Assembly (NCBI GenBank): GCA_964482495.1
Contig: CAYZXS010000021.1
Coordinates: 658 to 64,657 of the forward strand
Direction: 5' to 3'
DNA: 64,000 nucleotides
Source of the DNA: an uncultured Planctomycetales bacterium
Lineage (GTDB): Bacteria; Planctomycetota; UBA1135
Below the pieces are notes generated by a model, which did not search any database, was not told the origin of the DNA, and was given only the letters and a program-made list of their open reading frames with translations. The translations under genes and the position numbers were made by a program. Shown here piece after piece: positions 8,242 to 63,009 of the stretch (position 1 is the stretch's first letter; every line of letters begins with the position of its first letter).

Positions 8242-8835
8242 ATGTTCGACACTCTCTTCCAGCAACCCGCCCTCTGGTTCAGCATCCCGGCGCTCGCCGG
8301 CACCGCGATCTTCCTGCTGCGCCTGGCGCTGATGCTGATCGGTGGAGACTCGAGCGACGGCGGCGTGGACCTCGACGCGGATGCCGACTTCGATCTCGGC
8401 GACGGCGGCGACCACCTCGACCCCGGCCACTCCTTCGAGATCCTCTCGGTGCAGGCGATCGCCGCCTTCGCGATGGGCTTCGGCTGGGCCGGCCTCGGCG
8501 GGCTGAACGGCGCCGGCTGGGGAGTGACCGCGTCGATCGGAGCAGGCGTCGCCGGCGGCGTGCTCATGACCTGGCTGCTCGCGGTCCTGCTCCAGGGGAT
8601 GTACTCGCTCGAAAGCACCGGCACGGTCTCGATCGAGGCTGCCCTCGGCACCGAGGGCGAGGTCTACGCCACCGTGCCCAAGCGCGGCGCCGGGCGCGGC
8701 CAGGTCCGCGTCGTCCTGCAAGGCCGCCAGCGCATCTACAACGCCGTCTCCGACGAGGAAGAGCTGCCGACCAAGTCGCGCGTCCGCGTCGCCCGGGTGA
8801 ATCCCGACCACACTCTCACCGTCGTCCCTCTGTAG
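8242..8835 (+). CDS. NfeD/YqiJ-like membrane protein with C-terminal OB fold
   Basis: Hydrophobic helices, acidic loop, GTEGEVYATVP..GRGQVRV..GRQ OB-fold signature; directly upstream of a flotillin. Confidence 0.85.
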   Translation: MFDTLFQQPALWFSIPALAGTAIFLLRLALMLIGGDSSDGGVDLDADADFDLGDGGDHLDPGHSFEILSVQAIAAFAMGFGWAGLGGLNGAGWGVTASIGAGVAGGVLMTWLLAVLLQGMYSLESTGTVSIEAALGTEGEVYATVPKRGAGRGQVRVVLQGRQRIYNAVSDEEELPTKSRVRVARVNPDHTLTVVPL

Positions 8836-12540: not shown

Positions 12541-12544
12541 CCGC

Positions 12545-27854: not shown

Positions 27855-28585
27855 AGGGCGTCCTGCTCGCTGGCGGCCAAGGCACCCGGCTGCAGGGCAT
27901 GACGCGGGGCGGCAACAAGCACCTGCTCCCGGTGGGCGGGGCGCCGATGATCACTCACGGCCTGGAGAAGCTCGCCCGCGCCGGCATCGAGGAGGTCCTG
28001 CTGGTCACCGGCAGCCACCACCTCGCGGACTTCGAGACCTTCCTCAGTTCAACCCCGTTCCCCGATCTCCGGATCGAACTCGTGGCCCAGGAACGCCCGG
28101 GCGGCATCGGCGAGGGCCTCGCCCTGTGCCGGCGCCCCTTAGGGGATGGGGAGGAGCCGGTGGTCCTGCTCCTCGGCGACAACCTCTTCGAGCAACCCTT
28201 GGCTCCCTTGCTGCGCGACTGGCGTCGAGGCGGGGCGCCCGCCCGGATTCACCTCATCCCGGTGAAGGACCCAGAGCGCTTCGGGATCGCGACCCTCGAG
28301 GATGGTGCCCTCGTTCGGCTGACGGAGAAGCCTCCCCGTCCGGAGAGCTGCCTCGCAGTGGTCGGCCTGTACTTCCTCCCCGCCTCTGCCGCCGAGATCG
28401 CCCGCCAGGCGCCCCCCTCGGCCCGCGGGGAGGTGGAGATCATCACGATCCTGCAGCACTACCTCCGCCGCGGGGAGCTCGACCACGCCCGACTCGAAGG
28501 CTGGTGGGTCGACGCAGGCACCCCGGCCAGCCTCGCGGAGGCCGAGGCTCGAATCCGCGGGAATTCCCCGGACGCCCCGTCTTGA
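27851..28585 (+). CDS. rfbA: Glucose-1-phosphate thymidylyltransferase, short form
   Basis: TTG start overlapping upstream stop; KGVLLAGGQGTRL, NKHLLPV, PERFGIA, EKP, SARGEVEI, WWVDAGT. Confidence 0.88.
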   Translation: MKGVLLAGGQGTRLQGMTRGGNKHLLPVGGAPMITHGLEKLARAGIEEVLLVTGSHHLADFETFLSSTPFPDLRIELVAQERPGGIGEGLALCRRPLGDGEEPVVLLLGDNLFEQPLAPLLRDWRRGGAPARIHLIPVKDPERFGIATLEDGALVRLTEKPPRPESCLAVVGLYFLPASAAEIARQAPPSARGEVEIITILQHYLRRGELDHARLEGWWVDAGTPASLAEAEARIRGNSPDAPS

Positions 28586-28924
28586 GCCCTCCGAGGGGTC
28601 AAACAGGGCTGGCGCGGGCACGACAAGCCCTTATTCAGCGGCAAACCATTTACCTTAAATAGCTTACGCCAATCACGGCGAGCCAGACGCAATTCGGCCA
28701 AACCGAGTTCCGAGAAATACCATTTTTCTATAAAGTCCGTGGGAATCGCCGAAGTTGGCCAAATTTTTCTCCGTCTTCGCTGGCACTCTGCCCGATTATG
28801 GAATACAAATCAATCAACGGAGTCTCAGCCACTCGGCTGTGTTCGCCGCCCCCTCAGGGCATCGATATGACTCCTTCTCCCCCATCCTCATCCCTACCTA
28901 GGCAACAGGAGTAACGGAAAGCTC

Positions 28925-30061
28925 ATGTGGCGTAACATTCTCACTGGCGTCGCCGCCGTCGCAATCTGCGCTGGCGTGTCCGCGCAACAAACTCACAAGG
29001 TCCAGTCCAAGGAAGGTGTCAACGTCCAGTACCTGGGCACCTACAGCTTCGCTGACAACGCGTGGAGCGGCTCCGCTCGCGCCGGTTCGCGCACCCTGTA
29101 CAACTGCACCACCCCGGGCAACTACTACAGCACCGTCGGCAACAGCTCGGCCACCAACGCCGACCACCTGTGGATCGACGAAGGCAAGATCGCCGATAGC
29201 AACGCCTCCGCCATTGACCAGGTCAACGGCTTCGACTTTGCTTACTGCTCCAGAGACCTGGACCTGTCCGGCAACAGCAGCAGCATTCGGATCGTCTTCT
29301 ACGACGATTACGTCCCCTGCACCGCTCCGCCGGCCGCGACCTGCGACTACATCATCTCCGGTCTGCCGCTGTCCTCCACGGGCAACACGCAGTGCTGGGG
29401 TGTCGGCATTGACCTCGAAGGCGGCTTCGAGTGCTCGACCGACCTGGCCGACATGTTCAACACCACCGAAGCTGGCGTCGCTGATCGCTACTTCGGCTGG
29501 GCCTTCGGTGCCAACCCGGGCCTCACGAACATGAACAACACTGGTCCGATCCTCGACCTGCCCTGCGCCACCCCGGTCGTCCTGAACGGCTGCGGCTCGG
29601 GCAACGAGAACTTCTTCTACTGGGAAGACCCCGCTGCTGCCTGGTCCGGTTGCTACTGGTTCGGTGGTGTGCCGTGGGGCTCCTTCAGCATGAAGATGGT
29701 CGGTGGCGCCACGAACGCCTTCGCCTACGGCCATGCCAACAACACCCTCGGCCTCGCCAGCACCGACTTCGCTGGTGGCTCGAACGTGACCTTCACCGCC
29801 ACTGGCCAAGGCGCCGGTAGCGCCCTGTACCTGCTGGCGGCCCCGGCCTCCGGTAGCGTCATCCTGCCCGCCGGTGAGCTGGTCATCTCGACCTCCTTCT
29901 ACCCGGGCATCCCGTTCGCCATGGACTTCGCCACGGGCGCTCTGACCGCCTCCGTGCCGGCCGCCGTCGCGGTTGCCTACGTCCAAGCCGCCGAGACCAC
30001 CGGCCCGGCCACCCCCGGCGCCCTGGTCGCTCTGTCGAACGGTCTCTACTGCCTCGGTTGA
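28925..30061 (+). CDS. Secreted Ala/Gly/Ser/Thr/Asn-rich, Cys-containing protein; candidate major surface protein
   Basis: Signal peptide ending VSA-Q; AGGAG upstream; codon style unlike neighbours (many GCT/GGT/ACT, AAC); own strong terminator. Confidence 0.8.
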   Translation: MWRNILTGVAAVAICAGVSAQQTHKVQSKEGVNVQYLGTYSFADNAWSGSARAGSRTLYNCTTPGNYYSTVGNSSATNADHLWIDEGKIADSNASAIDQVNGFDFAYCSRDLDLSGNSSSIRIVFYDDYVPCTAPPAATCDYIISGLPLSSTGNTQCWGVGIDLEGGFECSTDLADMFNTTEAGVADRYFGWAFGANPGLTNMNNTGPILDLPCATPVVLNGCGSGNENFFYWEDPAAAWSGCYWFGGVPWGSFSMKMVGGATNAFAYGHANNTLGLASTDFAGGSNVTFTATGQGAGSALYLLAAPASGSVILPAGELVISTSFYPGIPFAMDFATGALTASVPAAVAVAYVQAAETTGPATPGALVALSNGLYCLG

Positions 30062-45920: not shown

Positions 45921-46489
45921 GACAAGGAGGTCCTGCCGAGCCGGAAGGCCCGGAGGTTGACCTCGATGACCTTCTCGCCCTTGGCGTGGAAGAGCCGCTC
46001 GATCTGACGCTCGAGCTCCGCCGGCTCCAGGGGGAGGAAGTGCGAAGCGGCCCCGACCATGGCCATGTTGCTGGCGAGGATCGTGCCCGCCTCCTTGGCG
46101 AGGGCGTCGGCCTCCACCAGGCAGGTATGAGGCAGCTGCTCGATGCGGCTGACGATCTCCTCCTGCTCCGGGTAGTCGCTGATGTTCTCCACCCGCCCGG
46201 TGCTGGTGAGCATGGTGCCGGAGGAGGAAAGGAAGCCGAGATAGCGCAGGCCCTCCATGACCTCGAGGCTGAGGATCATGTCGGCGTCGCCGGCGGCGAT
46301 GATGTCGCTGTGGATCGGGCGGTCCGCCAGCCTCAGGTTGGCGAGCACGGCGCCGCCGCGCTGGGCCATGCCGTGGACCTCGGACTGCTTGACCGCGTAG
46401 CCGCTCTTCATGGCGGCCGAGGCGATGATCACGGCCATGGACAGCAAGCCCTGGCCGCCGACCCCCGCGAGCAGGATGTCGTACTTCAT
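45905..46489 (-). CDS. iorB: Indolepyruvate:ferredoxin oxidoreductase subunit beta
   Basis: ILLAGVGGQG, QSEVHGMAQRGGAV, NMAMVGA. Confidence 0.93.
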   Translation of the reverse strand: MKYDILLAGVGGQGLLSMAVIIASAAMKSGYAVKQSEVHGMAQRGGAVLANLRLADRPIHSDIIAAGDADMILSLEVMEGLRYLGFLSSSGTMLTSTGRVENISDYPEQEEIVSRIEQLPHTCLVEADALAKEAGTILASNMAMVGAASHFLPLEPAELERQIERLFHAKGEKVIEVNLRAFRLGRTSLSCAAS

Positions 46490-48144
46490 GCGTCGGTTCC
46501 TCCGGTGGCTCCCTTCTTCTCGTCGCGGCGGCGGCGCTTGGCGGTCTCGATGCACTCCCGGACGGCGATGACGACCGAGAGCCCGCGGTGATCGATCTCG
46601 CGGCGGAAGACCGCCGCCATGTCGTCGACCCGCTTCGGGTGGGCCTCCATCACGTGGAGGTGGTCGGGGTGGACCCCGAGCCCCAAGACCAGGGGCTCCA
46701 GCGCCGACGAGGGCAGGATGGTCGGCTGGCCCCCGGTCATGCCGACGGTGGAGTTGTCGAGGATCACGAGGACGATGTCGGCGTCGCTGGCTACTGCGTC
46801 CATCAGCGCCGTGACCCCGGAGTGGAGGAAGGTGCTGTCCCCGATCACCGCGAAGGCGGGGTGCATGCCGGCCTCCGCGGCGCCCTTGGCCATGCCGATC
46901 GAGGCGCCCATGCAGACGCAGGACTCGATGGCCGAGTAGGGCGGCAGCGCGCCGAGCGTGTAGCAGCCGATGTCCGAGGCCACCAAGGACTGCTCGAGGC
47001 CGTCGATCGCCTGGCGGATGGCGGCGTAGCTATCGGCGTGCGGGCATCCCTGGCACAGCTGCGGCGGCCGGTTTCGGACCGGCAGGTCGATGGATGAGAC
47101 CGTCTGCCGCCCAGGCAGGTCCAAGGCGCGACGGACGAAGTCCGGGTTGAGCTCGCCGTCTTGGGGCAAGTGGCCGGACAGCTTGCCCTCGATGCGGATG
47201 GTCTGCGGCAGCAGGCCGCGGAGGTAGCGCTCGAGGTAAGGGTTGCCCTCCTCCAGGACGAGCAGCTTGTCGACGTGGGCGGCGAGCTCCCGGATCCGCT
47301 CCACCGGCAGCGGGTAGGCCCCGATGTGCAGGTGCGAGGGCCGGTGGCGCAGGTCTTCCAGGTTCTCGTAGTAGTAGTTCCTGGCCAGGCCGGTGGTGAT
47401 GACGCCGAGCTCGTGCCGTTCGGGGTTGAGGACCAGCTGGTTGTTGGGAGATCCTTCGCTGTAGGAGAGCATCTCCGGCTGGCGGTCCAGCAGGTCCCGC
47501 CACTGCATCCGGGCGTAGGCGGGCAGCAGAGTCCAGCCACGGGTGTCGCGCGGCTTGCGCATCGGCTTCTCGGCCAGCGGCGGCTGGGGTCGCACCACGG
47601 CCCGGCTGTGCGCCAGCCGGGTCACCAGCCGGACCAGGACCGGGACGTGGAAGTGCTCCGACAGCTCGAAGGCCTCGCGGATCATCTCGTAGGCCTCCTG
47701 CTGGTTGGCGGGCTCCAGGCAGGGGATCCGGGCGAAGTCTGCGAAGTAGCGCGAGTCCTGCTCGTTCTGCGAGCTGTGCATGCCGGGGTCGTCGGCGACG
47801 CAGACCACGAGGCCGCCGTTGATCTGGACCACGGCGCCGTTCATGAAGGGGTCGGCGGCGACGTTCAGGCCGACGTGCTTCATGACCACCAGCGCGCGCC
47901 GGCCGACCATGGAGACGCCGAGCGCCTCCTCGAAGGCGGTCTTCTCGTTGGCGCACCAGGACGCCACCGGCTTGCCCGCCTGGTCAGAGAGCTTGATCAG
48001 ATACTCCAGGACCTCGGTCGAGGGCGTGCCCGGGTAGGCGTAGGCGGCGGTAATGCCGGCGTGCACCGCGCCCAGCGCGACGGCCTCGTCCCCGAGCAGC
48101 ACCTGCCGCAACGGTCCCCTCTTGACGGTTGTGCTTCCACTCAC
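46486..48144 (-). CDS. iorA: Indolepyruvate:ferredoxin oxidoreductase subunit alpha (short form)
   Basis: LLGDEAVA, AYPGTPSTE, NEKTAFE, MKHVGLNVAADP, RPPQLCQGCPH, SDIGCY, GDSTFLHSG. Confidence 0.95.
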   Translation of the reverse strand: MSGSTTVKRGPLRQVLLGDEAVALGAVHAGITAAYAYPGTPSTEVLEYLIKLSDQAGKPVASWCANEKTAFEEALGVSMVGRRALVVMKHVGLNVAADPFMNGAVVQINGGLVVCVADDPGMHSSQNEQDSRYFADFARIPCLEPANQQEAYEMIREAFELSEHFHVPVLVRLVTRLAHSRAVVRPQPPLAEKPMRKPRDTRGWTLLPAYARMQWRDLLDRQPEMLSYSEGSPNNQLVLNPERHELGVITTGLARNYYYENLEDLRHRPSHLHIGAYPLPVERIRELAAHVDKLLVLEEGNPYLERYLRGLLPQTIRIEGKLSGHLPQDGELNPDFVRRALDLPGRQTVSSIDLPVRNRPPQLCQGCPHADSYAAIRQAIDGLEQSLVASDIGCYTLGALPPYSAIESCVCMGASIGMAKGAAEAGMHPAFAVIGDSTFLHSGVTALMDAVASDADIVLVILDNSTVGMTGGQPTILPSSALEPLVLGLGVHPDHLHVMEAHPKRVDDMAAVFRREIDHRGLSVVIAVRECIETAKRRRRDEKKGATGGTDA

Positions 48145-52381: not shown

Positions 52382-53703
52382 GGCCGCTGCCGCGCCGGTT
52401 CGGTCAGGACCCGCAGCGGCGGGATCGCGCGCATCGTCCGCTCCGAGGGGACCAGGCGCGCGAAGCCGGTGGCCGCCACGCCGCCCGTCACGGCGGCCGT
52501 CCCTTCGACGGCGCCCGCGCCGGCGGGGAGCTGCAAGAACGCTGGGGCTCCCGGTTCGACCTCGAGGCGGTGCTCGCCGATCTGCCAGAGCACGGGGCCG
52601 CCCTCGGCCGCCAGCTCCAGCCGGCAGCTCGCGCGGAGCTCGTCCTCCACGGGCAGCTTGAGCTTGCGCTCGGCGCCGCTGGCCTTCAGCGCCAGGCGCT
52701 TCTCCTCGTGGACCGGCAGGAAGCGGTACTCGTAGGCGGTATCGGGCTCCAGGTGGCTATCCGTGTGCCGAGTGGCGTTGCCGGCGACCTCGGCCACGAC
52801 GGTGTAGGGCGCCTCCTCCTCCGTCGCGAGCCGTCGCTGCACGCGCAGCCCGTCGGGACGGCTCTCGAAGCGCCGCCACTTGAGGGTGACCCGGGTCGGC
52901 CCGACCGAGGCGGCCTCGAGCTCCGCCGGGATCGGCAGCACCGCCGCCGGCGGGATGTAGCGGGCGGCGACGGCGTGGAGGAAGACCATCTCCTCCGCCA
53001 CCAGCTCGCGCAGGCCGACGTCGCCGAGGCTGCGCGGATCGACGTCCGCGATCCAGCCCAGCAGCACGCAAGCCGCGAGGTAGGTGCCGCGCTGATTCGG
53101 GTGCGAGCCGTCGGGACGGTGCAACTCCCAGTGCGGCTTCTCCTCGAGGGCCTCCCGCCACGCCAACCCGACCGGGGCCACCTCGGCGCCGGCCTGCTTG
53201 GCCAAGCCGCGGTAGGCGGCCTCCAGACCTTCGGTCATCTCCAGCTCGCCGCGCCGGGCCCAGGTCATGAACAGGAGCGGCCTGGCGCCAGCCTTGCGCG
53301 CTTCGGCGATCAGCTTCTTGCCGTTGCGGTGCATCAGCAGCGGGTCGGTCAGCGGGAGCCGGCTCTGCTCCTGGAGCACGACCACGTCCCACCCGCCCTC
53401 CCGGATGAGATCGACCGAGCGGCCCGCGATCCAGTGACGCTCGAAGGTGCAGCCGCCGGGGGTGCGCGACTCGACCTCGATCTCCAGCGGCAACCGGGCG
53501 GAGGCCGCAAGCGCCTGGACGGCCCGCGGGAGCTTGTTCTGCTCCGTGTAGCTGTTGCCGAGGAACAGCACGCGCAGGGCGGGCGGCGGCGGGGCGGCGT
53601 GGACCTCGGCCTGGACTTCGTCGGGCTGGATCTCCGGCTCCTGGGCCGGACCGGGGCTCAAGAGCAGCGCCAGGGAAGCCGCCAAGGGCGAGAGGAGACG
53701 CAT
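52378..53703 (-). CDS. Secreted SGNH/GDSL-type hydrolase with fibronectin type III domain
   Basis: RVLFLGNSYT, WDVVVLQEQS, DGSHP; FN3 VTLKW...TDSHLEPDTAYEYR; alternative start 53718. Confidence 0.8.
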   Translation of the reverse strand: MRLLSPLAASLALLLSPGPAQEPEIQPDEVQAEVHAAPPPPALRVLFLGNSYTEQNKLPRAVQALAASARLPLEIEVESRTPGGCTFERHWIAGRSVDLIREGGWDVVVLQEQSRLPLTDPLLMHRNGKKLIAEARKAGARPLLFMTWARRGELEMTEGLEAAYRGLAKQAGAEVAPVGLAWREALEEKPHWELHRPDGSHPNQRGTYLAACVLLGWIADVDPRSLGDVGLRELVAEEMVFLHAVAARYIPPAAVLPIPAELEAASVGPTRVTLKWRRFESRPDGLRVQRRLATEEEAPYTVVAEVAGNATRHTDSHLEPDTAYEYRFLPVHEEKRLALKASGAERKLKLPVEDELRASCRLELAAEGGPVLWQIGEHRLEVEPGAPAFLQLPAGAGAVEGTAAVTGGVAATGFARLVPSERTMRAIPPLRVLTEPARQRP

Positions 53704-53918
53704 CAGGGATTGCTGCATGGTGGGGAATCCGGCTCCATCCTAGGGTCCGGAGGGAGCGGAGCGCGAACCGGTAGGATTCCGGATATACTCGGGCCGAACC
53801 TGCGCTACCGCCACCACTTGGGGCCGCAGGGTGTCGAGCCAGAACCAGCCTCTGGCAGTGTTCGTCCCGCATCGTCGCGTGGAGAATGGCTCCGCGGAGC
53901 CCCCCTCCCCTGCACGCC

Positions 53919-56156
53919 ATGAACCTGTTCCCGCTGGTCGTCGTCGCCCTTGGCCTGGCTGTGGCCCTCGCCGCCACCGCTGCGCGGCGCCTGGAGATGC
54001 GCCGGCTCGAGCGCGGCCTGGAGGAGCGGAAGCAGGCCAAGCGCAAGGGCAGCCACCGCGCCCGGCTGCAGTTCCCCCACGTCGACCTGAGCCGCTGCAT
54101 CGGCTGCGGCACCTGCGTCGCCGCCTGCCCAGAGGAGGGCGTGCTCGAGATCCTGCACGGCCAAGCCCTGGTGGTGCACGGCGCCCGCTGCGTCGGCCAC
54201 GGCCTCTGCGCCGCCGAGTGCCCGGTGGGCGGCATCGCCTTGACCCTGGGCGACCTGGAGGAGCGTCGCGACATCCCTGCGCTGACGGAGAGCCTCGAAG
54301 CGGCCGGGACGCCAGGCTTGTTCTTGGCCGGGGAAGTCACCGGCTACGCCTTGGTCCGGACCGCGATCGGCCACGGCAGCGCGGTGGCCCACGAAGCCGC
54401 GCGCCGCTGCCGGGAGTCCCCCGCCCCTGCCGGCGACGACGGCTGGCTCGACCTGTGCATCGTCGGCGCCGGGCCCGCCGGCCTGGCCTGCGCCCTGGAG
54501 GCCAAGCGCCAAGGGCTGCGCTTCCGCCTGCTCGAGCAGGAGGACACGATCGGCGGCACGGTCGCCAAGTACCCGCGCAACAAGCTGGTCATGACCCAGC
54601 CGGTCGAGCTGCCGCTGCACGGCAAGCTGACCCGCACCAGCTACCGCAAGGAGGAGCTGGTCGAGCTCTGGGAGCGCGTCGCGGCGGAGCAGGAGCTGCC
54701 GCTGCGCACCGGAGAGGAGCTGCTGGGGGTCGAACCAGTCGACGGGGTCGGCTACCGGGTCCGGACCACCGCGGGCGAGCACCGGGCGCGCTGCGTCTGC
54801 CTGGCCCTCGGCCGCCGCGGAACGCCGCGCAGGCTCGGGGTGCCGGGCGAGACCCTGCCGAAGGTCGCCTACGCGCTGCAGGACGCCAATTCCTACCGCG
54901 GCCGCAAGCTGCTGGTGGTGGGCGGCGGCGACAGCGCCATCGAGGCGGCCGTCGGCCTCGCCGAGCAGCCCGGCAACGAGGTCACGCTGTCCTACCGCAA
55001 GTCGGCCTTCTTCCGCCTCAAGGCGCGCAACGAGGCGCGCATCGAGCAGGCGGCGGCCAAGGGCAGCGTCCGCGTCGAGTTCGACTCCCAGGTCCGCGGC
55101 ATCCTGCCGGACCAAGTCGTGCTCGTGGCCGGCCGCGGCGAGCAGGCTCGCGAGATCGAGCTCGCCAACGACGCCGTCTTCGTCATGGTCGGCGGCGTGC
55201 CGCCCTACCCGCTGCTCGAGGCCAGCGGCGTCTCCTTCGCGCCCGAGGACCGGAAGGTGCCGGCGCCGGTGGTCGACCAGGGCCCCGGGCTGCTGGGCGC
55301 GCTCGCGACAGGCCTGGTGCTGACCCTGGCTGCGCTGGCCTGGGTCGGCTACTTCCTCGGCTACTACCAGCTCGACCCCGCCGGCCGCGCCCCGCACGGG
55401 CTGCACGGCTTGCTGCGGCCCTCGAGGGGCGCCGGTCTGGCCTTCGGGGTCGGCTCGACGGCCCTGATCCTGCTCAACCTGAGCTACCTGCTGCGGCGCA
55501 ACCCGAGGCTGCCGCTGCGCTTCGGATCGCTCCAGGCGTGGATGACCAGCCACGTCGCCACCGGCATCCTGGCCTTCGTGCTGGCGCTGCTGCACGCGGC
55601 GCTGGACCCGCGCCAGACGGTCGGCGGCCACGCCCTGGCCTGCCTGGCGGTCCTGGTCGGCACTGGCGCCATGGGCCGGTACCTCTATTCTTTCGTGCCG
55701 CGTGCGGCGAACGGACGCGAATTGGCGCTTGATGAGGTGGAGTCCCAGCTCGCCGCCCTCTCCGCCGCCTGGGACCAGACCCACCGCGGATTCGGCGAGC
55801 AGGTGCGGTCGGAGATCGAAGAGCTGGTGCGCCATCAACGCTGGGAGCGGTCCTTCTTCGGCAGGCTCTACGCCCTGATCGCGGGGCAGCGGAGCCTGCG
55901 GCGGGCGCTCGCCCGGCTGCGGGTGGAGGGCAAGCAGCGGGACATCCCCGAGAGCCAGATCCGCAAGCTCAAGACCCTGGCGCGCCGAGCCCACCGGACC
56001 TCGCTGATGGCCTCGCACTTCGAGGACCTGCGCGGGCTGCTGGCGAGCTGGCGCTACCTGCACCGCTGGATCGCCTTGCTGATGGTGCTGCTGATCGCCA
56101 CCCACGTCTTCACGGCGCTGAAGTACGCCGACTTGCCGGGAGCGCTGGGGCGGTGA
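53919..56156 (+). CDS. Membrane-anchored 2x[4Fe-4S] ferredoxin / FAD-NADPH oxidoreductase fused to a diheme-b-like transmembrane domain
   Basis: TM anchor; CIGCGTCVAACP and CVGHGLCAAECP; VGAGPAG; VGGGDSA plus YRK; two H-x13-H TM pairs; alternative start 53886. Confidence 0.88.
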   Translation: MNLFPLVVVALGLAVALAATAARRLEMRRLERGLEERKQAKRKGSHRARLQFPHVDLSRCIGCGTCVAACPEEGVLEILHGQALVVHGARCVGHGLCAAECPVGGIALTLGDLEERRDIPALTESLEAAGTPGLFLAGEVTGYALVRTAIGHGSAVAHEAARRCRESPAPAGDDGWLDLCIVGAGPAGLACALEAKRQGLRFRLLEQEDTIGGTVAKYPRNKLVMTQPVELPLHGKLTRTSYRKEELVELWERVAAEQELPLRTGEELLGVEPVDGVGYRVRTTAGEHRARCVCLALGRRGTPRRLGVPGETLPKVAYALQDANSYRGRKLLVVGGGDSAIEAAVGLAEQPGNEVTLSYRKSAFFRLKARNEARIEQAAAKGSVRVEFDSQVRGILPDQVVLVAGRGEQAREIELANDAVFVMVGGVPPYPLLEASGVSFAPEDRKVPAPVVDQGPGLLGALATGLVLTLAALAWVGYFLGYYQLDPAGRAPHGLHGLLRPSRGAGLAFGVGSTALILLNLSYLLRRNPRLPLRFGSLQAWMTSHVATGILAFVLALLHAALDPRQTVGGHALACLAVLVGTGAMGRYLYSFVPRAANGRELALDEVESQLAALSAAWDQTHRGFGEQVRSEIEELVRHQRWERSFFGRLYALIAGQRSLRRALARLRVEGKQRDIPESQIRKLKTLARRAHRTSLMASHFEDLRGLLASWRYLHRWIALLMVLLIATHVFTALKYADLPGALGR

Positions 56157-58495
56157 GGCTGCGCGATCCGCGCCTGTGGCTGAGCCTGGCGAGCCTCGCG
56201 GCGGTGGCGCTGCTGGCCTTCATCGACCTGCGCCGGAACACCTCTCCGGGCCCGGTCCACCCGACCCACGCCCAGCTCAAGGAGCTGCGCAGCCGCCGGG
56301 GTTGCGCGGAGTGCCACGGCGACGAGGCGGGCGGCATGGCCGGCGCCTGCCTGCGCTGCCACGAGGCGATCGCCCGCCAGTTGGAGCAGGGCAGCGGCCT
56401 GCACGGGAGCCTGGTGCAGCCGCCGGTGGAGGACTGCGGCCGCTGCCACCTCGAGCACCTCGGCGACGCCTTCCCGCTGATCTCGGACGACAGCTTCGAG
56501 CGGGCCGGCGCCGACCGGCTCGGCTTCGACCACGCCGTGGCCGAGTTCCGGCTCGTCGGCGCCCACGTCGAGCTCGCCTGCGACCGCTGCCACCCGGACG
56601 CCCAGCTCGGGCTGATGCCGGAGGGGAGGTCGCGCTTCCTCGACCAGGAGCAGGCCTGCGAGAGCTGCCACGAGGACCCGCACCGCGGCGCGATGCGGCG
56701 CGCTTGCGAGGACTGCCACGGACAGGAGCGGCCCTTCGAGCAGGTAGCGGTGTTCGAGCACGATGAGCGCTTCCCCTTGGTCGGCGGCCACGCCGGCCAG
56801 GCCTGCAAGGCCTGCCACCCGCAGGACAGCCTGCAGTCGGTCGAGGCCTTGGACCGGGGCGTGCCGGAGGAGTCCTGGCGCCGGTGTCTGGACTGCCACG
56901 CGTCGCCGCACGCTCCCCGCTTCCTGCGCGCCGCGGCGCGAGAGCAGGGCCAATCGGAGGCCGAGAGCTGCGCCGGCTGCCACCCGGTCGAGGGTCCCGC
57001 CTTCGCCGGCGCCGAGCTTCCCCGCGAGCGGCACGGCCTGAGCGGCTTCCCCTTGTCGCCGCCGCACGCCGAGCAGGACTGCCGGGCCTGCCACCAGCCA
57101 GCGGCCGAGGGCGTGGGCTGGGGCGCCCGCTTCCCGGGGCGCGCAGCGCAGGACTGCGGCGCCTGCCATCAGGACCCGCACCGCGGCCAGTTCGCCGGCG
57201 GCCCCTTCGGCGGCGGATGCCTGGACTGCCACCTGGAGACGACCTGGGCCCCGCCCGACTTCGATGCCGAACGCCACGAGCGGACCGGCTTCGCGCTGAC
57301 CGGCGCCCACCTCGAGGCGGAGTGCCGCGGCTGCCACCCCGACCCGCCGCCAGACGCGCCGCGGCGCTTCCGCGACACCGAGGGCCGCTGCGAGGACTGC
57401 CATGACGACGCACACCGCGGCGCCTTCCAGGCACCGACCGCCGCCCTGCCTCCTGCTGAGCAGGGCGAGTGCGGCCGCTGCCACGGCACCGAGCGCTTCG
57501 CGCCGGCGCTGGAGGGCCGCTTCGAGCACGGTCGCTGGACCGACTTCGGCCTGGAGGGGGCCCACCTGCGGGCGGACTGCCGCAGCTGCCACCCGGCGCT
57601 CCCGGAGCCGGATGCCGCCGGCCGCAGCTTCGCCTTCGTCGCCGACACCGTCGACGGCGACCCGCGCGCCTGCTCCAGCTGCCACGAGGACGTGCACGCC
57701 GGGGCCTTCGACGCCGAAGGCCTGCCGGCCCTCTTGGACGGCCGCGCCGGCTGCGATCGCTGCCACGACAGCGAGGTCTTCCGCGAGCTCCGCCCGGGCG
57801 CCTTCGATCACGGCGCCTGGACCGACTTCGCGCTGGCCGGGGCCCACGCCCAGAGCGGCTGCGAAGCCTGCCATGGCCGCGACCCGGCGCCCGCGGCCGG
57901 TACCCGGAGCCTTGGCCGCGTCGCCGACCGTTTCTCCGGCCCGGCGGACCGCTGCGTCAGCTGCCACCCGGACCCCCACCTCGGCCTCTTCGACCGCGCC
58001 GGCCAGCCCGCCGAGGTCGACGGCCGCCGAGGATGCGCCCGCTGCCACCAGCCGGTGTCCTTCCGGTCGCTGACCCTGGCCGGCTTCGACCACGGCCGGT
58101 GGACCGGCTACGCGCTCGCCGGCAAGCACGCGCAGGCCTCCTGCAACGGCTGCCACGCTCCCTTGGCGCAGGCCGACGCCCTCGGCCGCCGTCACGGCTT
58201 CGCCCGCGGCCAGGCCTGCGACGACTGCCACGCCGACCCGCACGTCGGCCAGTTCGCCGCCGCCGGCCGCACCGACTGCGCCCGCTGCCACGACGAGCAG
58301 GACTTCCGCCAGCCGCGCTTCGACCACCAGACCGACTCCCGCTTCCCGCTCGACGCCAATCACGCCGCGCTCGACTGCGCCCGCTGCCACAAGCCCTGGC
58401 CCCTGGCCGGCGGCGGCGAAGCGGTGCGCTACAAGCCGCTCGGCACCCGCTGCCAGGACTGCCACGGCTTCGGCTTCGAGGACCGCTCCCGATGA
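56153..58495 (+). CDS. Multiheme cytochrome c, 26 CxxCH motifs, N-terminal membrane anchor/signal
   Basis: 26 CxxCH counted by hand; GTGA overlap with upstream gene; SPGP..H after the hydrophobic N-terminus. Confidence 0.95.
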   Translation: MRLRDPRLWLSLASLAAVALLAFIDLRRNTSPGPVHPTHAQLKELRSRRGCAECHGDEAGGMAGACLRCHEAIARQLEQGSGLHGSLVQPPVEDCGRCHLEHLGDAFPLISDDSFERAGADRLGFDHAVAEFRLVGAHVELACDRCHPDAQLGLMPEGRSRFLDQEQACESCHEDPHRGAMRRACEDCHGQERPFEQVAVFEHDERFPLVGGHAGQACKACHPQDSLQSVEALDRGVPEESWRRCLDCHASPHAPRFLRAAAREQGQSEAESCAGCHPVEGPAFAGAELPRERHGLSGFPLSPPHAEQDCRACHQPAAEGVGWGARFPGRAAQDCGACHQDPHRGQFAGGPFGGGCLDCHLETTWAPPDFDAERHERTGFALTGAHLEAECRGCHPDPPPDAPRRFRDTEGRCEDCHDDAHRGAFQAPTAALPPAEQGECGRCHGTERFAPALEGRFEHGRWTDFGLEGAHLRADCRSCHPALPEPDAAGRSFAFVADTVDGDPRACSSCHEDVHAGAFDAEGLPALLDGRAGCDRCHDSEVFRELRPGAFDHGAWTDFALAGAHAQSGCEACHGRDPAPAAGTRSLGRVADRFSGPADRCVSCHPDPHLGLFDRAGQPAEVDGRRGCARCHQPVSFRSLTLAGFDHGRWTGYALAGKHAQASCNGCHAPLAQADALGRRHGFARGQACDDCHADPHVGQFAAAGRTDCARCHDEQDFRQPRFDHQTDSRFPLDANHAALDCARCHKPWPLAGGGEAVRYKPLGTRCQDCHGFGFEDRSR

Positions 58496-60165
58496 GGCTC
58501 CTTCCCCTCCCCCTCCCCGCTCTGCTCGCGGCGCTGCTCGGCGTCGCGGCCCTCTCGCCCGTCGCGGCCCAGGACCCCGGCATGCGCCGGGTCGAGGCCC
58601 GCGTGACCGCCTCCAGCCCCGGCCTCGCCACCCTCGACCGCGGCAACGACGCCGGCCTGCAGCCCGGCGACCGGGTCCGGCTGCACCCGCTCGGCGCCGC
58701 GGTCCTCGAGGGCCGGGTCGAGCAGGTCGGCGCCCGCGACGCCACGGTGCGCCTGAACGACCCGGCAGCGGCGGTCGACATCGGCGCCCGGGCCGAGGCC
58801 TTCGTGCCCGCCGACCGCATCCAGGAACCCGGCGGCGAGGCTCCCGGCCAGCCCCCGGCGCACGCGCCCTGGTCGCGGCCGCCGGACGAGTGGACCCAGG
58901 ACATGCCGCTGCTGGCGAAGTCCCAGGGCCGCAAGCCCGAGCAGCGCCCGGTCGAGTGGAGCGGCCGCTTCTTCAGCAGCGTCGACCACACCACCGACCG
59001 CGGCAGCGACGACGACCGGAGCTACCTCTACGCCCGCAGCGGCGCCGACCTGGACGCCCGCAACCCCTTCGGCCGCGGCGGCGAGCTGCGCATCGACTTC
59101 GAGGTCAACCACCGCGCCGACTCCAACCCCGGCTACCCCGACGAGAGCGAGACCGGGCTGCGCCTGGACCGGCTCTCCTGGTCGGTGGGCGGCGACCGCC
59201 ACGCCCCGCGGCGCTGGGAGTTCGGCCGCTTCCTGCACCGCGAGTTCCCGGAGTTCGGGGTCGCCGACGGCGCCGATTTCAGCGCCCGGCTGTCGCCGGC
59301 CAACACCTTCGGCGCCAGCTTCGGCTACCTGCCCGAGCTGGACTCCGACTACGCCACCGGCAAGGACCTGCAGACCTCCCTCTACTGGTCCCACACCAGC
59401 GGCGAGCGCCGCGAGCTGCGCGCCGGCGCCGGCTTCCAGAAGACCTGGCACCGCGGCAGCGCCGACCGCGACCTGTTCCTGGCCAAGCTGAGCTGGTCGC
59501 CGCCGGCCGGCCTGAACTTCTACTCGACCGCCTGGGTCGACCTCTACGGCAGCGAGGACACCGCCAAGTCCTCCGGCGCCGAGCTGACCCAGCTCTTCAG
59601 CAGCCTCGGCTGGCGGGCGGAGGGCGGCGACGGGGTGCGGCTGGGCTACTCGCGGATCCGCTTCCCGCAGCTGCTGCGGCTGCAGATCAGCCAGATCACG
59701 CTGGCGCAGCTGTCGGACAACCAGACCGACCGGATCGACCTCTCGGCCTGGAAACGGCTCAACGCCGATCTCCGCCTGTCGGGGCGGGTCGACTCCTGGA
59801 GCGACGAGGACGACAGCGGCGGCGGCGGACAGCTGCGGATGGACTGGCGCGGGCCGCTGTTCGCGAACGGCAACCTCGGCGCCGCTTTGTTCACCAACCA
59901 GGGCCAGTTCAGCTCGGTCACGGGGCTGCGCCTCGACGCCGACTGGGCCACCGGCCTGGGCTCCTGGCGGATCTCCTGGGAGAGCGCTCAATTCAGCCAG
60001 GAGGACTTCGTCGGCGATCAGGAGGAGCTGCTCCAGCACGCCCTCGAGCTCTCCTGGGATCTCTACGGCGGCACCGGCTGGTCCTGCTCGAGCTACCTCG
60101 AACAGCGCCTCGGCGACGAGATCGACTCCACGACCCTCGGCTTCTACCTCCAGCACCGGTTCTAG
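58492..60165 (+). CDS. Outer-membrane beta-barrel with N-terminal periplasmic beta-domain
   Basis: ATG 58492 overlaps upstream stop; signal peptide; amphipathic Trp/Tyr/Gly strands; C-terminal LGFYLQHRF BAM-type signal. Confidence 0.82.
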   Translation: MRLLPLPLPALLAALLGVAALSPVAAQDPGMRRVEARVTASSPGLATLDRGNDAGLQPGDRVRLHPLGAAVLEGRVEQVGARDATVRLNDPAAAVDIGARAEAFVPADRIQEPGGEAPGQPPAHAPWSRPPDEWTQDMPLLAKSQGRKPEQRPVEWSGRFFSSVDHTTDRGSDDDRSYLYARSGADLDARNPFGRGGELRIDFEVNHRADSNPGYPDESETGLRLDRLSWSVGGDRHAPRRWEFGRFLHREFPEFGVADGADFSARLSPANTFGASFGYLPELDSDYATGKDLQTSLYWSHTSGERRELRAGAGFQKTWHRGSADRDLFLAKLSWSPPAGLNFYSTAWVDLYGSEDTAKSSGAELTQLFSSLGWRAEGGDGVRLGYSRIRFPQLLRLQISQITLAQLSDNQTDRIDLSAWKRLNADLRLSGRVDSWSDEDDSGGGGQLRMDWRGPLFANGNLGAALFTNQGQFSSVTGLRLDADWATGLGSWRISWESAQFSQEDFVGDQEELLQHALELSWDLYGGTGWSCSSYLEQRLGDEIDSTTLGFYLQHRF

Positions 60166-60167
60166 AC

Positions 60168-61541
60168 ATGGCAACCCCGCTCCGCATCCGCCGCCTGGCG
60201 CCGCTGGCCCGCCCGCTCCTGACCCTGGGCCTGGCGCTGCTCACGACCCTCGCCTGCGTCCGCGGCCGTGAAGACGTCCCGCCGCAAGGCTGGTGGGACG
60301 GCCTCGGCCCGGTGATCCCGCACGACAAGTTCCCGGCCGACTGCTCGCTTTGCCACACCGGCCAGGGCTGGCAGGAGATCCGCGACGACTTCGCCTTCGA
60401 CCACGCCGCCGAGACCGGCTACCCGCTCGAAGGCGCCCACGCCGCGGCCCAGTGCCTGCGCTGTCACAACGACCGCGGCCCGGCGGCCGACTTCGCCGCC
60501 CGCGGCTGCGGCGGCTGCCACGAGGACGTGCACCTCGGCCAGCTCGGCACCAATTGCGAGGACTGCCACGAGCAGCCTGACTGGCGGCCGCGGGGACGGA
60601 TCTCCGAGCACGCCAAGACCCGCTTCCCGCTGATGGGAGCCCACGCCGCGACCGCCTGCCGCGCCTGCCACCCTGCGGCCGAGCTCGGGGTCTTCGTGCC
60701 CACCGACACCGAGTGCCTGAGCTGCCACCGCGACGACCTGGCGCGCGCCAAGGACCCGGACCACCTGGCGCAGGGCTGGACTGACGGCTGCGACCGCTGC
60801 CACATCTCGACGAGCTGGGGCGGCGCCGCCTTCAACCACGGCTGGTGGCCGCTGACCGGCGCCCACGGCTCCGCCAGCTGCAAGTCCTGCCACAGCGGCG
60901 GGGTCTACGCCGGCACCGACCCGGCCTGCTTCTCCTGCCACTCGGCCGAGTACACCGGCGCCGCGGATCCGGACCACGTCGCCCTCAACCTGCCGACCGC
61001 CTGCCGCCAGTGCCACACCACCCGCGGCTGGAAGCCGGCCGACATGGACCACTCGGTGCTCAGCGGCAGCTGCGTGAGCTGCCACCTGGCTGACTATCAG
61101 GCCACCACCGACCCGGACCACCAGGCGCTGGGCATCCCGACCACCTGCGAGGACTGCCACAGCACCCGCAACTGGCGCGACGCCAACTTCGACCACGCTG
61201 GGATCGCCAGCGGCTGCGTCAATTGCCACCTCGACGACTACCAGGCGACCACCAACCCGAACCACATCGCGGCCGGCTTCCCCACGACCTGCGAGGACTG
61301 CCACGACACGGTGCGCTGGAGGAACGGCACCTTCGACCACGACTTCCCGATCACCAGCGGCAAGCACAAGGGCTTCAACTGCAACCGCTGCCACCTGAAC
61401 AGCAGCAACTACGCCGACTTCTCCTGCACCCACTGCCACGCCCACCGCAAGTCGGAGATGGACGACGAGCACGACGGCGTCAGCGGCTACGTCTGGTCGA
61501 GCCCGGCCTGTTACACCTGCCACCCGGACGGACGCGAGTGA
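60168..61541 (+). CDS. Multiheme cytochrome c, 17 CxxCH motifs, possible lipoprotein
   Basis: Start ATG 60168; Arg-rich n-region, hydrophobic h-region, TLAC; 17 CxxCH counted by hand. Confidence 0.93.
   Translation: MATPLRIRRLAPLARPLLTLGLALLTTLACVRGREDVPPQGWWDGLGPVIPHDKFPADCSLCHTGQGWQEIRDDFAFDHAAETGYPLEGAHAAAQCLRCHNDRGPAADFAARGCGGCHEDVHLGQLGTNCEDCHEQPDWRPRGRISEHAKTRFPLMGAHAATACRACHPAAELGVFVPTDTECLSCHRDDLARAKDPDHLAQGWTDGCDRCHISTSWGGAAFNHGWWPLTGAHGSASCKSCHSGGVYAGTDPACFSCHSAEYTGAADPDHVALNLPTACRQCHTTRGWKPADMDHSVLSGSCVSCHLADYQATTDPDHQALGIPTTCEDCHSTRNWRDANFDHAGIASGCVNCHLDDYQATTNPNHIAAGFPTTCEDCHDTVRWRNGTFDHDFPITSGKHKGFNCNRCHLNSSNYADFSCTHCHAHRKSEMDDEHDGVSGYVWSSPACYTCHPDGRE
60927..61340 (+). repeat. 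Three tandem 144-nt (48-aa) diheme repeats in the 17-heme cytochrome
   Basis: Units start at 60927, 61071 and 61215: CxxCH..Y....P.H.....PT.CxxCH....W.....DH. Confidence 0.85.
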
Positions 61542-62218
61542 GCGGCTGGCGCCGGGCCTACCGCGAAGCCCCCGAGCTCTTCGACGCCTTCGCCCGCGCC
61601 GAGGACCCGGACGGCGTGGTGGCGGCGGCGCTGCGGCGCCGGGCCGGCTTCGTGGACCGGCGGGTGCTGGAGCTGGGCTGCGGCACCGGCCGCTTCGGGC
61701 CGGCCTTGGCGGACGGCGCCGGGTCGTGGATCGGCCTGGATCCCGAGCCGGCGATGGTCGGCCTGGCGCGGGGCGCTTGGCGGGGACGGCCGGGCATGGA
61801 GCTGGTGCGCGGCCGAGGCGAGCGGCTGCCCTTCCCGGACCAGAGCTTCGACGCCGCGGTGGCCACCTGGGTGCTCGGCGACTTGCCGGTCGGACGGCGG
61901 GCGGCGGTGATCCTGAGTTGCGACCGGGTGCTGCGGCCTGACGGGGCCCTCTGGCTGCTCGAGAACGCCGGCGGCTGCGCCTTCGACGCCCTGGAAGGAG
62001 GCCGCGGACCGGGCTGGGCGGCGGCCGCGGGCTTCGAGCCGGTCGAGGAGGTCGAGACCGAGCTCCGCTTCCCAGACGAGGCCAGCGCGGCGCGCTGCCT
62101 CGGCTACCTGCTCGGCGACGGCGCCCGCGAGGCCTTGTCGCTGGCCCCTCGGCGCCGCTTCAGCCACCGGGTGCTCATCCTGCGGCGGCCGCGGGGCCGC
62201 TGGTCGAGCCCGTCTTGA
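61538..62218 (+). CDS. Class I SAM-dependent methyltransferase
   Basis: GTG 61538 overlaps cytochrome stop; VLELGCGTG, GLDP, LPFPDQSFD, RVLRPDG. Confidence 0.88.
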   Translation: MSGWRRAYREAPELFDAFARAEDPDGVVAAALRRRAGFVDRRVLELGCGTGRFGPALADGAGSWIGLDPEPAMVGLARGAWRGRPGMELVRGRGERLPFPDQSFDAAVATWVLGDLPVGRRAAVILSCDRVLRPDGALWLLENAGGCAFDALEGGRGPGWAAAAGFEPVEEVETELRFPDEASAARCLGYLLGDGAREALSLAPRRRFSHRVLILRRPRGRWSSPS

Positions 62219-62954
62219 GCTCCCCGCCCTCGAACCAGAAGAACTCCACGGTGCTCGAGCGCAGCATGTCGTCCCGGCGGTAGACCGGAAACCCGAGGCC
62301 CGGCGCCCGCACCTGCTCGACCGCCCGGCGGTATTCCGTCGAGTCCACCGCGAGGTCGTGACCGCGGACCGCGCCGCCGCGGCCGACCGGCAGGAAGCGG
62401 TACAGGTGCCAAGCGTGCAGCTCCAGGCCCTCCGCCCGCAGCCGCTGGAGCAGCCGGGCGACGGCGCCGAGGGCGTCGAGGTTGCGCCGGGTCACCACGG
62501 TGCCGATGGTCAGCTCCTTGCCGCTGGCGGCCAGCTCGCCGATTCCCGCCATCAGGCGATGGAAGTGGCCGCCGGGGGCGGACCGGAGCTGGTCGTGCAG
62601 GACGGCGTCGGCGGCCTCGAGCGGCAGCAGGTAGCGGTCGACCCAGTCGAAGGCGGCGAAGCCCGGCGGCGGCGCCAGGCCGTTGCTGCCGACCTGCACC
62701 AGGAAGCCCAGCTCGCGGGCGCGGCGGCCGAGCCGCTCGAGGTCGTGCGGCCACAGGAAGGGCTCGCCGCCGCCGAGCACGACGTTGCGGTAACCGGCCC
62801 GACGCAGGCGCTCCAGCAGCTCGGCGGCGCCCTCGAAGCTGGCGGTGTCGAAGCCCGTCTCGCTGGCGCAGAAGGCGCAGCCCATGTCGCAATCGGGCAG
62901 CAGGAAGACCGAGGCGATGCGCTTCGCGGAGCCGGGCGGGCGGAGGGCGGGCAT
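62175..62954 (-). CDS. Radical SAM protein, single domain
   Basis: CDMGCAFC (CxxxCxxC), GGGEPFL, SNG, TVVTRRN, FLPVGRG; no SPASM cysteines. Confidence 0.9.
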   Translation of the reverse strand: MPALRPPGSAKRIASVFLLPDCDMGCAFCASETGFDTASFEGAAELLERLRRAGYRNVVLGGGEPFLWPHDLERLGRRARELGFLVQVGSNGLAPPPGFAAFDWVDRYLLPLEAADAVLHDQLRSAPGGHFHRLMAGIGELAASGKELTIGTVVTRRNLDALGAVARLLQRLRAEGLELHAWHLYRFLPVGRGGAVRGHDLAVDSTEYRRAVEQVRAPGLGFPVYRRDDMLRSSTVEFFWFEGGELKTGSTSGPAAAAG

Positions 62955-62969
62955 GGATCCGGGTACAGG

Positions 62970-63009
62970 AATAAGCAAAGGGCGGGGAGGATGCCAGCCC
63001 TCCCCGCCC
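62970..63009 (-). terminator. Intrinsic terminator of the 63028-63945 gene
   Basis: 11-bp stem GGGCGGGGAGG/CCTCCCCGCCC, 8-nt loop, then TTTGCTTATT on the minus strand. Confidence 0.8.

Follow-up and report, generated by a model that had tools for sequence, protein, structure and literature searches.

A cluster of four genes, designated g1 to g4, occupies positions 53,919 to 61,541 of a 64,000-nucleotide stretch of DNA from an uncultured Planctomycetales bacterium (Planctomycetota; UBA1135; GenBank assembly GCA_964482495.1, contig CAYZXS010000021.1, positions 658 to 64,657 of the forward strand), which is referred to below as the window. On balance, the cluster probably encodes a trans-envelope electron-export machine of the PCC3 type, a kind of porin-cytochrome cluster, in which the inner-membrane entry module works like an NADPH (reduced nicotinamide adenine dinucleotide phosphate) oxidase. 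Relative to PCC3, the new element appears to be an iron-sulfur (Fe-S) flavoprotein partner, which is fused to the membrane protein in Planctomycetota and is a separate neighbour in other phyla. The fused flavoprotein suggests that the PCC3 type, which was described from sequence, is fed by NAD(P)H and not by quinones. The evidence lies in the domains of the proteins, their motifs and the conservation of these motifs, the predicted barrel fold of g3, the gene fusion and the conserved gene neighbourhood. The four genes are as follows.

53919-56156, + strand: g1, 745 residues; membrane anchor, Fe-S dicluster domain, FAD (flavin adenine dinucleotide)/NAD(P)H domain and C-terminal five-helix membrane domain of di-heme-b type
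56153-58495, + strand: g2, 780-residue cytochrome c with 26 CxxCH motifs, presumed periplasm-spanning wire
58492-60165, + strand: g3, 557-residue outer-membrane beta-barrel protein with a signal peptide, ending in Arg-Phe (...HRF)
60168-61541, + strand: g4, 457-residue cytochrome c with 17 CxxCH motifs and a lipoprotein-like N-terminus, presumed cell-surface cytochrome

An earlier note on the window (the original prediction) had described four co-oriented, closely joined genes, and this layout is confirmed: g1 and g2 overlap by GTGA, g2 and g3 overlap by ATGA, and 2 nucleotides separate g3 from g4 (TAG-AC-ATG). Through these overlapping stops and starts and the 2-nucleotide gap, g1 to g4 are translationally coupled. 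An in-frame alternative ATG for g1 lies at 53886, and homologues and the database gene call favour 53919. The count of 43 c-type heme sites likewise holds, with 26 CxxCH in g2 and 17 in g4; from the Cys and His frequencies of the other window genes, about 0.001 CxxCH would be expected per protein, and every other window gene has none. Scans of 53400-62400 for promoters and terminators found none. The nearest relatives of g1 to g4 are proteins of Planctomycetota metagenome-assembled genomes (MAGs).

PCC3 was defined from genome sequence (He et al., 2017; PMC5566968) as a porin, extracellular and periplasmic cytochromes (median heme numbers 34 and 21, respectively) and an inner-membrane protein of about 300 residues, whose five helices include two with a WX3HX13H motif (helices 3 and 5) and one with SGXXG (helix 4). 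Residues 455-745 of g1 have five helices, two WX3HX13H motifs on helices 3 and 5, and the SGXXG motif on helix 4 with Thr for Ser; this five-helix protein is here a domain of a fusion, whereas that of PCC3 stands alone. The gene content also agrees, because a cytochrome with more than 20 hemes (g2), a multi-heme cytochrome (g4) and a barrel (g3) are present, with probable cellular locations corresponding to those of PCC3. In the definition and in a survey of the Gallionellaceae (PMC9900912), PCC3 consists of the same parts, with a variable extracellular heme count and a periplasmic cytochrome of more than 20 hemes that varies in three-heme steps. The statement that no characterised system has this architecture therefore needs qualification: the architecture is that of the sequence-defined PCC3 (PMC5566968), but no member has been characterised experimentally (10.1101/2025.02.27.639646).

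The present cluster differs from PCC3 in several respects. Here an Fe-S/FAD/NAD(P)H protein forms one polypeptide with the membrane protein. The PCC3 descriptions consulted name four genes, and searches of open-access papers and bioRxiv, He et al. (2017) included, found no account of a link between a flavoprotein and PCC3-type clusters. The gene order is flavoprotein-membrane fusion, periplasmic cytochrome, barrel and surface cytochrome, in contrast to membrane protein, periplasmic cytochrome, surface cytochrome and porin in PCC3. Finally, the published functional model of PCC3 is quinone-linked Fe(II) oxidation. Features within g1 and g3 are as follows.

53925-53981, + strand: N-terminal transmembrane helix of g1, residues 3-21, seen in hydropathy and followed by an Arg/Lys-rich stretch
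54081-54236, + strand: Fe-S dicluster domain of g1, residues 55-106, with Fer4_10, Fer4_21 and Fer4_7 matches
54450-55259, + strand: FAD/NAD(P)H domain of g1, residues 178-447, with a two-dinucleotide-binding-domain fold (Pyr_redox_3, residues 181-440, E 1e-41)
55281-56153, + strand: C-terminal membrane domain of g1, residues 455-745, five transmembrane helices, PCC3-type inner-membrane protein
55539-55595, + strand: W541-x3-H545-x13-H559 on domain helix 3, invariant
55695-56033, + strand: helical Arg/Lys-rich insertion of about 110 residues (593-705) between helices 4 and 5, also found in the stand-alone membrane proteins of other phyla
56049-56105, + strand: W711-x3-H715-x13-H729 on domain helix 5, invariant
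58582-58809, + strand: small N-terminal beta domain of g3, residues 31-106, confidently modelled, with invariant G51 and G59, matching no family

The FAD/NADPH domains and the two H-x13-H transmembrane pairs attributed to g1 are present, the former as Pyr_redox_3 and the latter in the C-terminal helices. The four His and two Trp residues of both WX3HX13H motifs are invariant in 32 homologues and also in the cross-phylum alignment of the membrane protein. On helix 4, the sequence T582-G-A-M-G586-R corresponds to the cross-phylum consensus SGxxGRY, of which G583 and G586 are invariant. From the positive-inside rule, H545 and H715 are predicted to lie near the cytoplasmic face and H559 and H729 near the periplasmic face, which would place the 110-residue insertion in the cytoplasm, where it could serve as a docking platform for the flavoprotein/Fe-S module. 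The membrane domain is homologous to the stand-alone membrane proteins of 275-350 residues in other phyla, and fused and stand-alone forms together make up 1378 representative clusters among 1.84 billion proteins.

Among known families, Ferric_reduct (PF01794) is matched weakly by g1 with E 2e-5 (25.1 bits, compared with a gathering threshold of 28) and at E ≤1 by 15 of the 32 family members. DUF4405 and Ni_hydr_CYTB also match the domain weakly, and the same pattern is seen across the 32 members; proteins of the DUF4405 family have been found experimentally to bind heme b (PMC11334425). The ferric-reductase domain of NADPH oxidases (NOX) is defined by H-x13-H pairs on helices 3 and 5 (PMC3591440, PMC5566968). 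Two His pairs with the 13-residue spacing occur on these same helices in g1, and heme binding is accordingly a prediction from sequence; the six-helix core and the C-terminal domain of ferredoxin-NADP+ reductase (FNR) type are replaced by five helices and an N-terminal domain of the thioredoxin reductase (TrxR) fold. The proposed logic resembles that of NOX and FRE proteins (SpNOX, CsNOX5) and of MsrQ-Fre, in which electrons pass from NAD(P)H to a flavin, to two stacked b hemes held by His pairs and then to an acceptor on the far side, and MsrQ is an example in which flavin reduction is left to a second protein (PMC3591440, PMC5676040, PMC12525009). g1 differs from NOX and FRE in the thioredoxin-reductase fold and N-terminal position of its dehydrogenase, in its added Fe-S dicluster domain, in having five rather than six helices, and in its cytoplasmic insertion of 110 residues. 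The acceptor would here be a multi-heme cytochrome c, in contrast to O2, Fe(III) chelates or MsrP for NOX, FRE and MsrQ.

The flavoprotein part of g1 is probably cytoplasmic, because an Arg/Lys-rich stretch follows the helix at residues 3-21, which by the positive-inside rule would stay inside. This helix is retained in stand-alone flavoproteins, such as that of Methylotenera versatilis. Two [4Fe-4S] motifs had been claimed for the adjoining domain. The first, C60xxC63xxC66xxxC70P, is canonical, but the second reads C91xxH94xxC97xxxC101P, with His for the second Cys, so that g1 lacks the two CxxCxxCxxxCP motifs that mark bacterial 2x[4Fe-4S] ferredoxin domains. All the cluster Cys residues are invariant among the 32 homologues and H94 is conserved in at least 90% of them; His also occupies this position in 56 of 58 flavoproteins with a canonical first motif, across phyla and including M. 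versatilis. The ligand set of motif 2 (54189-54224, residues 91-102) suggests a [4Fe-4S] cluster with three Cys and one His ligand, or a [3Fe-4S] cluster. Since His-ligated clusters often lie at the exit of electron-transfer chains, the motif-2 cluster may neighbour the inner heme b.

The FAD/NAD(P)H domain carries GAGPAG at residue 183 for FAD and GGGDSA at residue 335, followed by VTLSYRK and R366, for NAD(P)H; in the alignment, its "YRK" takes the place of "HRR", the NADPH motif found in thioredoxin reductases. Its closest sequence matches are YpdA/Bdr (7a7b, E 6e-22) and a TrxR-type FNR (3ab1), and a Foldseek search with the whole g1 model returned matches to this domain only (7apr, E 1e-17). 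These best matches of residues 178-447 in sequence and fold are all NADPH-dependent FAD enzymes, from which g1 differs in being membrane-anchored and fused to Fe-S and heme-b domains. Assignment of g1 as a thiol-disulfide reductase of either the YpdA or the TrxR type was rejected, since the active-site Cys residues are absent. The scores against TIGR04018 (YpdA/Bdr; 152.6 bits, cut-off 339.9) and TIGR01292 (thioredoxin reductase; 72 bits, compared with 343) fall far below the cut-offs, the active-site Cys14 of YpdA (GGGPCG) aligns with Ala in GAGPAG, CxxC in g1 is confined to the Fe-S domain, and a CxxC beyond that domain occurs in just 1 of 82 related flavoproteins. Because redox-active Cys residues are missing, the domain looks like an electron-transfer enzyme and not a disulfide reductase.

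Joint occurrence of the parts was examined in a genome scan with the g1 alignment, using one genome per species, which gave 80 loci that were then analysed with hidden Markov models (HMMs); linkage was counted in the 49 non-redundant loci whose sequence runs to 18 kb or more. As the original prediction would require, the same order of the four genes is seen again in Planctomycetota contigs that have unrelated flanking genes. The flavoprotein, di-heme membrane protein, g2-type cytochrome, g4-type cytochrome and barrel occur together in 44 of the 49 loci (membrane protein in 47, g2-type cytochrome in 47, g4-type cytochrome in 48, barrel in 47), and these loci come from at least 12 phyla. Full-length g1 homologues (about 740 residues, 55-85% identity) are numerous in Planctomycetota MAGs, and the heme motifs, Fe-S Cys residues and heme-b His residues are all conserved at this level of protein identity. 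The fused form of about 740 residues was found at 22 Planctomycetota loci and in two MAGs labelled as other phyla. The other scanned phyla have a split form, in which a flavoprotein of 440-460 residues is encoded beside a membrane protein of 275-350 residues; these include Kiritimatiellota, Calditrichota, Ignavibacteriota, Marinimicrobia, Gemmatimonadota, Acidobacteriota, Bacteroidota (cultured Flavobacteriaceae among them), Zixibacteria, Nitrospinota and Proteobacteria. By the Rosetta-stone argument, fusion of the flavoprotein and the di-heme protein here and adjacency of their genes elsewhere make a link from NAD(P)H to heme b much more plausible. That the two are fused or, almost without exception, neighbours, and that the free-standing flavoprotein has an anchor of its own, speaks for a single unit made up of the flavoprotein and the di-heme membrane protein.

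This relationship extends to a PCC3 cluster listed in the original definition, that of M. versatilis 301 (PMC5566968). Its locus encodes a 274-residue membrane protein related to g1 (E 1e-15), a 27-heme cytochrome related to g2 (26% identity, E 3e-54) and, adjacent and divergently transcribed, a 435-residue Fer4 and Pyr_redox_3 protein with 41% identity to the flavoprotein part of g1 (E 8e-107). The locus also holds a 34-heme cytochrome and a long heme-free terminal protein, which is presumably the porin; the HMM of the g3 barrel finds no match at this locus, and the presumed porin is a longer, different protein. As separate observations on this locus, a thioredoxin-fold gene of the AhpC/TSA-Redoxin type (7923-8435) adjoins the flavoprotein gene, and three minus-strand genes, one of them encoding DUF5666, split the cluster between the 27-heme and the 34-heme cytochromes.

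The g2 protein has a single N-terminal hydrophobic segment (residues 8-26), which could be cleaved or kept as an anchor, and is built of three-heme repeats of the form FxH..T.F.L.G.H....CxxCH, CxxCH, (D)PHxG...CxxCH. Both cytochromes contain Cytochrome_C7-like units (g2, E 3e-32; g4, E 1e-20), with a weak match to the nanowire_3heme domain, and no relative of g2 was found in the PDB at E <0.01. With 30 residues per heme, 54 His and 4 Met in g2, and 27 residues per heme, 36 His and 4 Met in g4, the composition fits tightly packed bis-His heme wires. Solved heme wires such as MtrCAB and GSU1996 advance about 9-10 Å per heme; on this basis the 26 hemes of g2 would span about 24 nm, sufficient for the periplasm. 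Orthologues of the g2 type at 63 loci have 17, 20, 23 or 26 hemes, and it seems from these counts that the protein gains or loses whole three-heme modules. The g2-type counts of the surveyed loci are almost only of the series 3n+2 (17/20/23/26), and those of proteobacterial PCC3 clusters, from the literature and M. versatilis 301, are of the series 3n (21/24/27). One public metagenome record has a 437-residue opposite-strand open reading frame (ORF) annotated at 12301-13614, where a 26-heme gene lies uncalled, which indicates that high-G+C cytochrome genes can escape automatic annotation.

The lipoprotein-like N-terminus ascribed to g4 stands in part: its LLTTLAC fits a loose PROSITE-type lipobox, but the strict pattern [LVI][ASTVI][GAS]C is not matched. 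The lipobox-like Cys is kept in most Planctomycetota orthologues, and not in those of other phyla. By analogy with the lipoprotein MtrC, g4 would be located at the cell surface. The g4-type orthologues carry 6-49 hemes. Three Planctomycetota loci have a short 7-heme surface-type cytochrome (L014, L021 and L022), followed by an extra 11-heme protein of about 930-1040 residues that is unrelated to g2 and g4.

The beta-barrel ending in Phe that had been proposed for g3 is supported by an AlphaFold2 model (pLDDT, the predicted local distance difference test score, 84.5) with 22 long strands at residues 155-556, which is matched by outer-membrane barrels in the PDB. The Foldseek matches are PapC/FimD usher pores and OprD-type porins (E 1e-9 to 1e-6). 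g3 has no match in Pfam or NCBIfam; with an iterated HMM, its barrel family was found in 68 of 84 related loci. The small N-terminal beta domain may be a periplasmic adaptor for the 26-heme cytochrome.

MtrCAB and MtoAB/PioAB share the outer-membrane logic proposed here, that is, a multi-heme cytochrome sheathed by a large barrel together with a surface lipoprotein cytochrome. The cluster had been described as not Mtr-like, and the family models agree, as there is no match to MtrB_PioB, MtrA/DmsE or OmcA/MtrC models. Assignment to the Mtr or Pcc families was therefore rejected; MtrB is also not among the top 50 structural matches of g3. The sole related signal for g2 and g4 comes from the MtrC/MtrF domain II/IV model, which they match weakly when all stretches are summed, although none passes by itself. 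Compared with MtrCAB, g3 has 22 predicted strands and MtrB 26, and the cytochromes hold 26 + 17 hemes instead of 10 + 10. Mtr takes electrons from quinol through CymA. The Geobacter OmaB/OmbB/OmcB and Ext clusters also combine a porin, a periplasmic cytochrome and a surface lipoprotein cytochrome, and the c7-type nanowire cytochromes of the GSU1996 family have the Cytochrome_C7-like units of g2 and g4 in common; the heme numbers of g2 and g4 are far larger than those of the Geobacter systems, and no close sequence relationship was detected. Electrons reach the Geobacter systems from the quinone-linked ImcH, CbcL and CbcBA. Three further candidates were set aside: PCC4, which includes Planctomycetes and has three small periplasmic cytochromes (4, 5 and 10 hemes) without an extracellular cytochrome (He et al., 2017); a Verrucomicrobia porin-cytochrome cluster with an 8-heme cytochrome, which is a different system (PMC5615132); and a Methylobacter cluster of the MtrAB type, which is unrelated (PMC13322032).

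The pathway that we infer from these features, in each of its electron-transfer steps as well as in its cofactors, its donor, its direction and the placing of g2 and g4, would start in the cytoplasm, where NAD(P)H, probably NADPH, would reduce the FAD of the thioredoxin-reductase-like domain of g1. Electrons would then pass through the two Fe-S clusters of the ferredoxin-like domain, one of them His-ligated or of the 3Fe type, to the inner heme b (H545/H715) and on to the outer heme b (H559/H729), thereby crossing the cytoplasmic membrane. The 26-heme g2, tethered to or docked at the inner membrane, would carry them over the periplasm into the g3 barrel, where the 17-heme lipoprotein g4 would pass them to an extracellular acceptor, for example Fe(III) or Mn(IV) minerals, humic quinones or a partner cell. 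Such a pathway would operate without quinone or proton pumping, and the membrane potential would favour outward flow. Its pay-off would therefore be re-oxidation of NAD(P)H, as an electron sink or for redox balancing, and not direct energy conservation. Taken as a whole, the interpretation given in the original prediction, in which cytoplasmic NAD(P)H is wired to the cell surface, is partly supported; bypass of quinones, NADPH as the donor and outward flow are proposals, and the published hypothesis for PCC3 is quinone coupling.

Several points weigh against this electron-export machine with an NADPH oxidase-like entry module. The membrane domain falls below the threshold of every Pfam family, and its profile searched against PDB sequences gave noise only, with no detectable relative of solved structure. 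The AlphaFold2 model of g1 is moderate (pLDDT 73, below 50 in the Fe-S domain) and contains no cofactors. Among the named PCC3 clusters, both the sequence comparison and the adjacent flavoprotein concern that of M. versatilis 301; the two clusters of Sideroxydans may or may not have the flavoprotein. The PCC3 type offers no experimentally characterised member as precedent (10.1101/2025.02.27.639646), and its authors, who likened the membrane protein to a ferric-reductase/NOX domain, proposed quinone coupling and electron uptake (PMC5566968); the membrane domain may hold a quinone site, and it also has weak matches to the quinone-reacting Ni_hydr_CYTB and Cytochrome_B families. The split form often occurs in members of groups that are mostly considered aerobes (Flavobacteriaceae, Gemmatimonadota, Methylotenera), so classic dissimilatory metal reduction has no obvious role in them. 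Spending of NADPH without conservation of energy also needs a physiological rationale.

The last two points lead to the first alternative, namely that the cluster is a NOX-like export wire with a non-respiratory purpose. It might acquire iron reductively, produce superoxide or further reactive oxygen species outside the cell, or furnish an enzyme of the periplasm or the surface with reducing power, in the way that MsrQ serves MsrP. All the characterised proteins with this kind of membrane-domain logic (NOX, FRE and MsrQ) do these jobs (PMC3591440, PMC5676040, PMC12525009), many carriers are aerobes and the pathway as drawn conserves no energy. Nevertheless, 43 c hemes and a dedicated barrel would be a heavy investment for iron uptake or oxygen radicals, the cluster is without a conserved partner enzyme or iron transporter, and the range of 6-49 hemes in the surface cytochromes suggests adaptation to solid or distant acceptors. 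We consider this explanation unlikely, though well worth keeping in mind.

Slightly less probable again is the published PCC3 model, according to which the membrane protein would be a quinone-reactive di-heme cytochrome b and the conduit would draw electrons inward, from Fe(II) or minerals outside the cell to the quinone pool, with the flavoprotein as an accessory, for example as a second entry point or for redox poising. He et al. proposed this for PCC3 and PCC4, and PCC3 is common in iron oxidisers. The model leaves the fusion or near-universal adjacency to an NAD(P)H/FAD/Fe-S module without a role, no quinone-site motif was identified in the membrane domain, and most of the carriers found belong to heterotroph-type lineages (Planctomycetota, Bacteroidota, Acidobacteriota). 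Furthermore, both PCC3 clusters of Sideroxydans ES-1 are down-regulated on Fe(II) (PMC8788666), and export therefore fits better than a role as Fe(II) oxidase; feeding by NAD(P)H would explain why expression of PCC3 does not track Fe(II) oxidation in this organism.

The original prediction also raised operation in reverse. Electrons donated by a cathode, by Fe(0), by a reduced mineral or by a syntrophic partner would then travel inward and reduce NAD(P)+. In principle, multi-heme wires can conduct either way, and TrxR-type FNRs work in both directions. On thermodynamic grounds, inward electrons would oppose the inside-negative membrane potential, and donors of the Fe(II) type would face a climb of several hundred mV to the NAD(P)+ couple (-320 mV); the cluster also lacks an energy-coupling subunit. 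Since the membrane potential aids outward flow and inward flow to NAD(P)+ would be uphill twice, export is favoured and the reverse direction is very improbable. Chance juxtaposition of the genes, or a decaying gene set without joint function, is effectively refuted by conservation, given the overlapping stop and start codons, the motifs conserved at 55-85% identity and the 44 of 49 loci with all five functions.

The reading preferred for g1 to g4, an NAD(P)H-fed exporter, may be extended to PCC3-type clusters of at least 12 phyla, which would then be quinone-independent, NOX-like exporters running from NAD(P)H through FAD, Fe-S and two b hemes to a wire of 40 or more hemes; we regard this generalisation as a serious possibility, just short of probable. 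To our knowledge, the characterised extracellular electron-transfer pathways of Gram-negative bacteria all enter through quinol dehydrogenases (CymA, ImcH, CbcL). If the generalisation is true, extracellular electron transfer would have an entry route of a new kind, and a widespread cluster would have to be given another function. A direct route from NAD(P)H would solve the problem of entry differently: the redox drop and the membrane potential would drive it, it would conserve no energy itself, and it would suit redox balancing in fermenting or oxygen-limited heterotrophs. As the module is widespread, it could bear on the cycling of iron, manganese and humic substances in sediments, soils and water. 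The model also provides a testable hypothesis for the unexplained inner-membrane protein of PCC3, and, being a single polypeptide, the fused g1 lends itself to biochemical study and to the wiring of cells to electrodes by synthetic biology.

The remainder of the window (G+C about 71%) contains housekeeping genes, including those for IleRS, RecQ, Fpg and Upp, and an RND efflux system with an outer-membrane factor of the NodT/TolC type; the presence of this factor indicates that the host has an outer membrane. Cytochrome c maturation genes, which the original prediction proposed to confirm elsewhere in the genome, were not found among about 30 of the window's genes; in a related MAG, a ResB gene lies 8 kb from the cluster. 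Scans for tRNAs and Rfam families across the window gave no match. Just downstream of the cluster, at 62175-62978 (- strand), is a radical SAM gene with weak, far-below-threshold matches to the heme-related radical SAM proteins AhbD and NirJ. This gene also neighbours the cluster in L001, the closest relative, whose flanking genes are those of the window, and not in L002 or L003.

Upstream of the cluster by 6 kb, at 46486-48144 (- strand), lies a homologue of the alpha subunit of indolepyruvate:ferredoxin oxidoreductase (E 7e-153), which points to low-potential ferredoxin metabolism in the organism, with no evidence of a link to the cluster. An ORF of 295 residues at 12545-13432 (- strand) matches aldehyde dehydrogenase profiles over its N-terminal half only and is situated directly downstream of a full-length aldehyde dehydrogenase of 493 residues (13432-14913, - strand); a truncated paralogue and a gene remnant are both conceivable. 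At 28001-30000, the G+C content dips to 0.647, compared with about 0.71 elsewhere, and the GC skew is strongly negative (-0.133).

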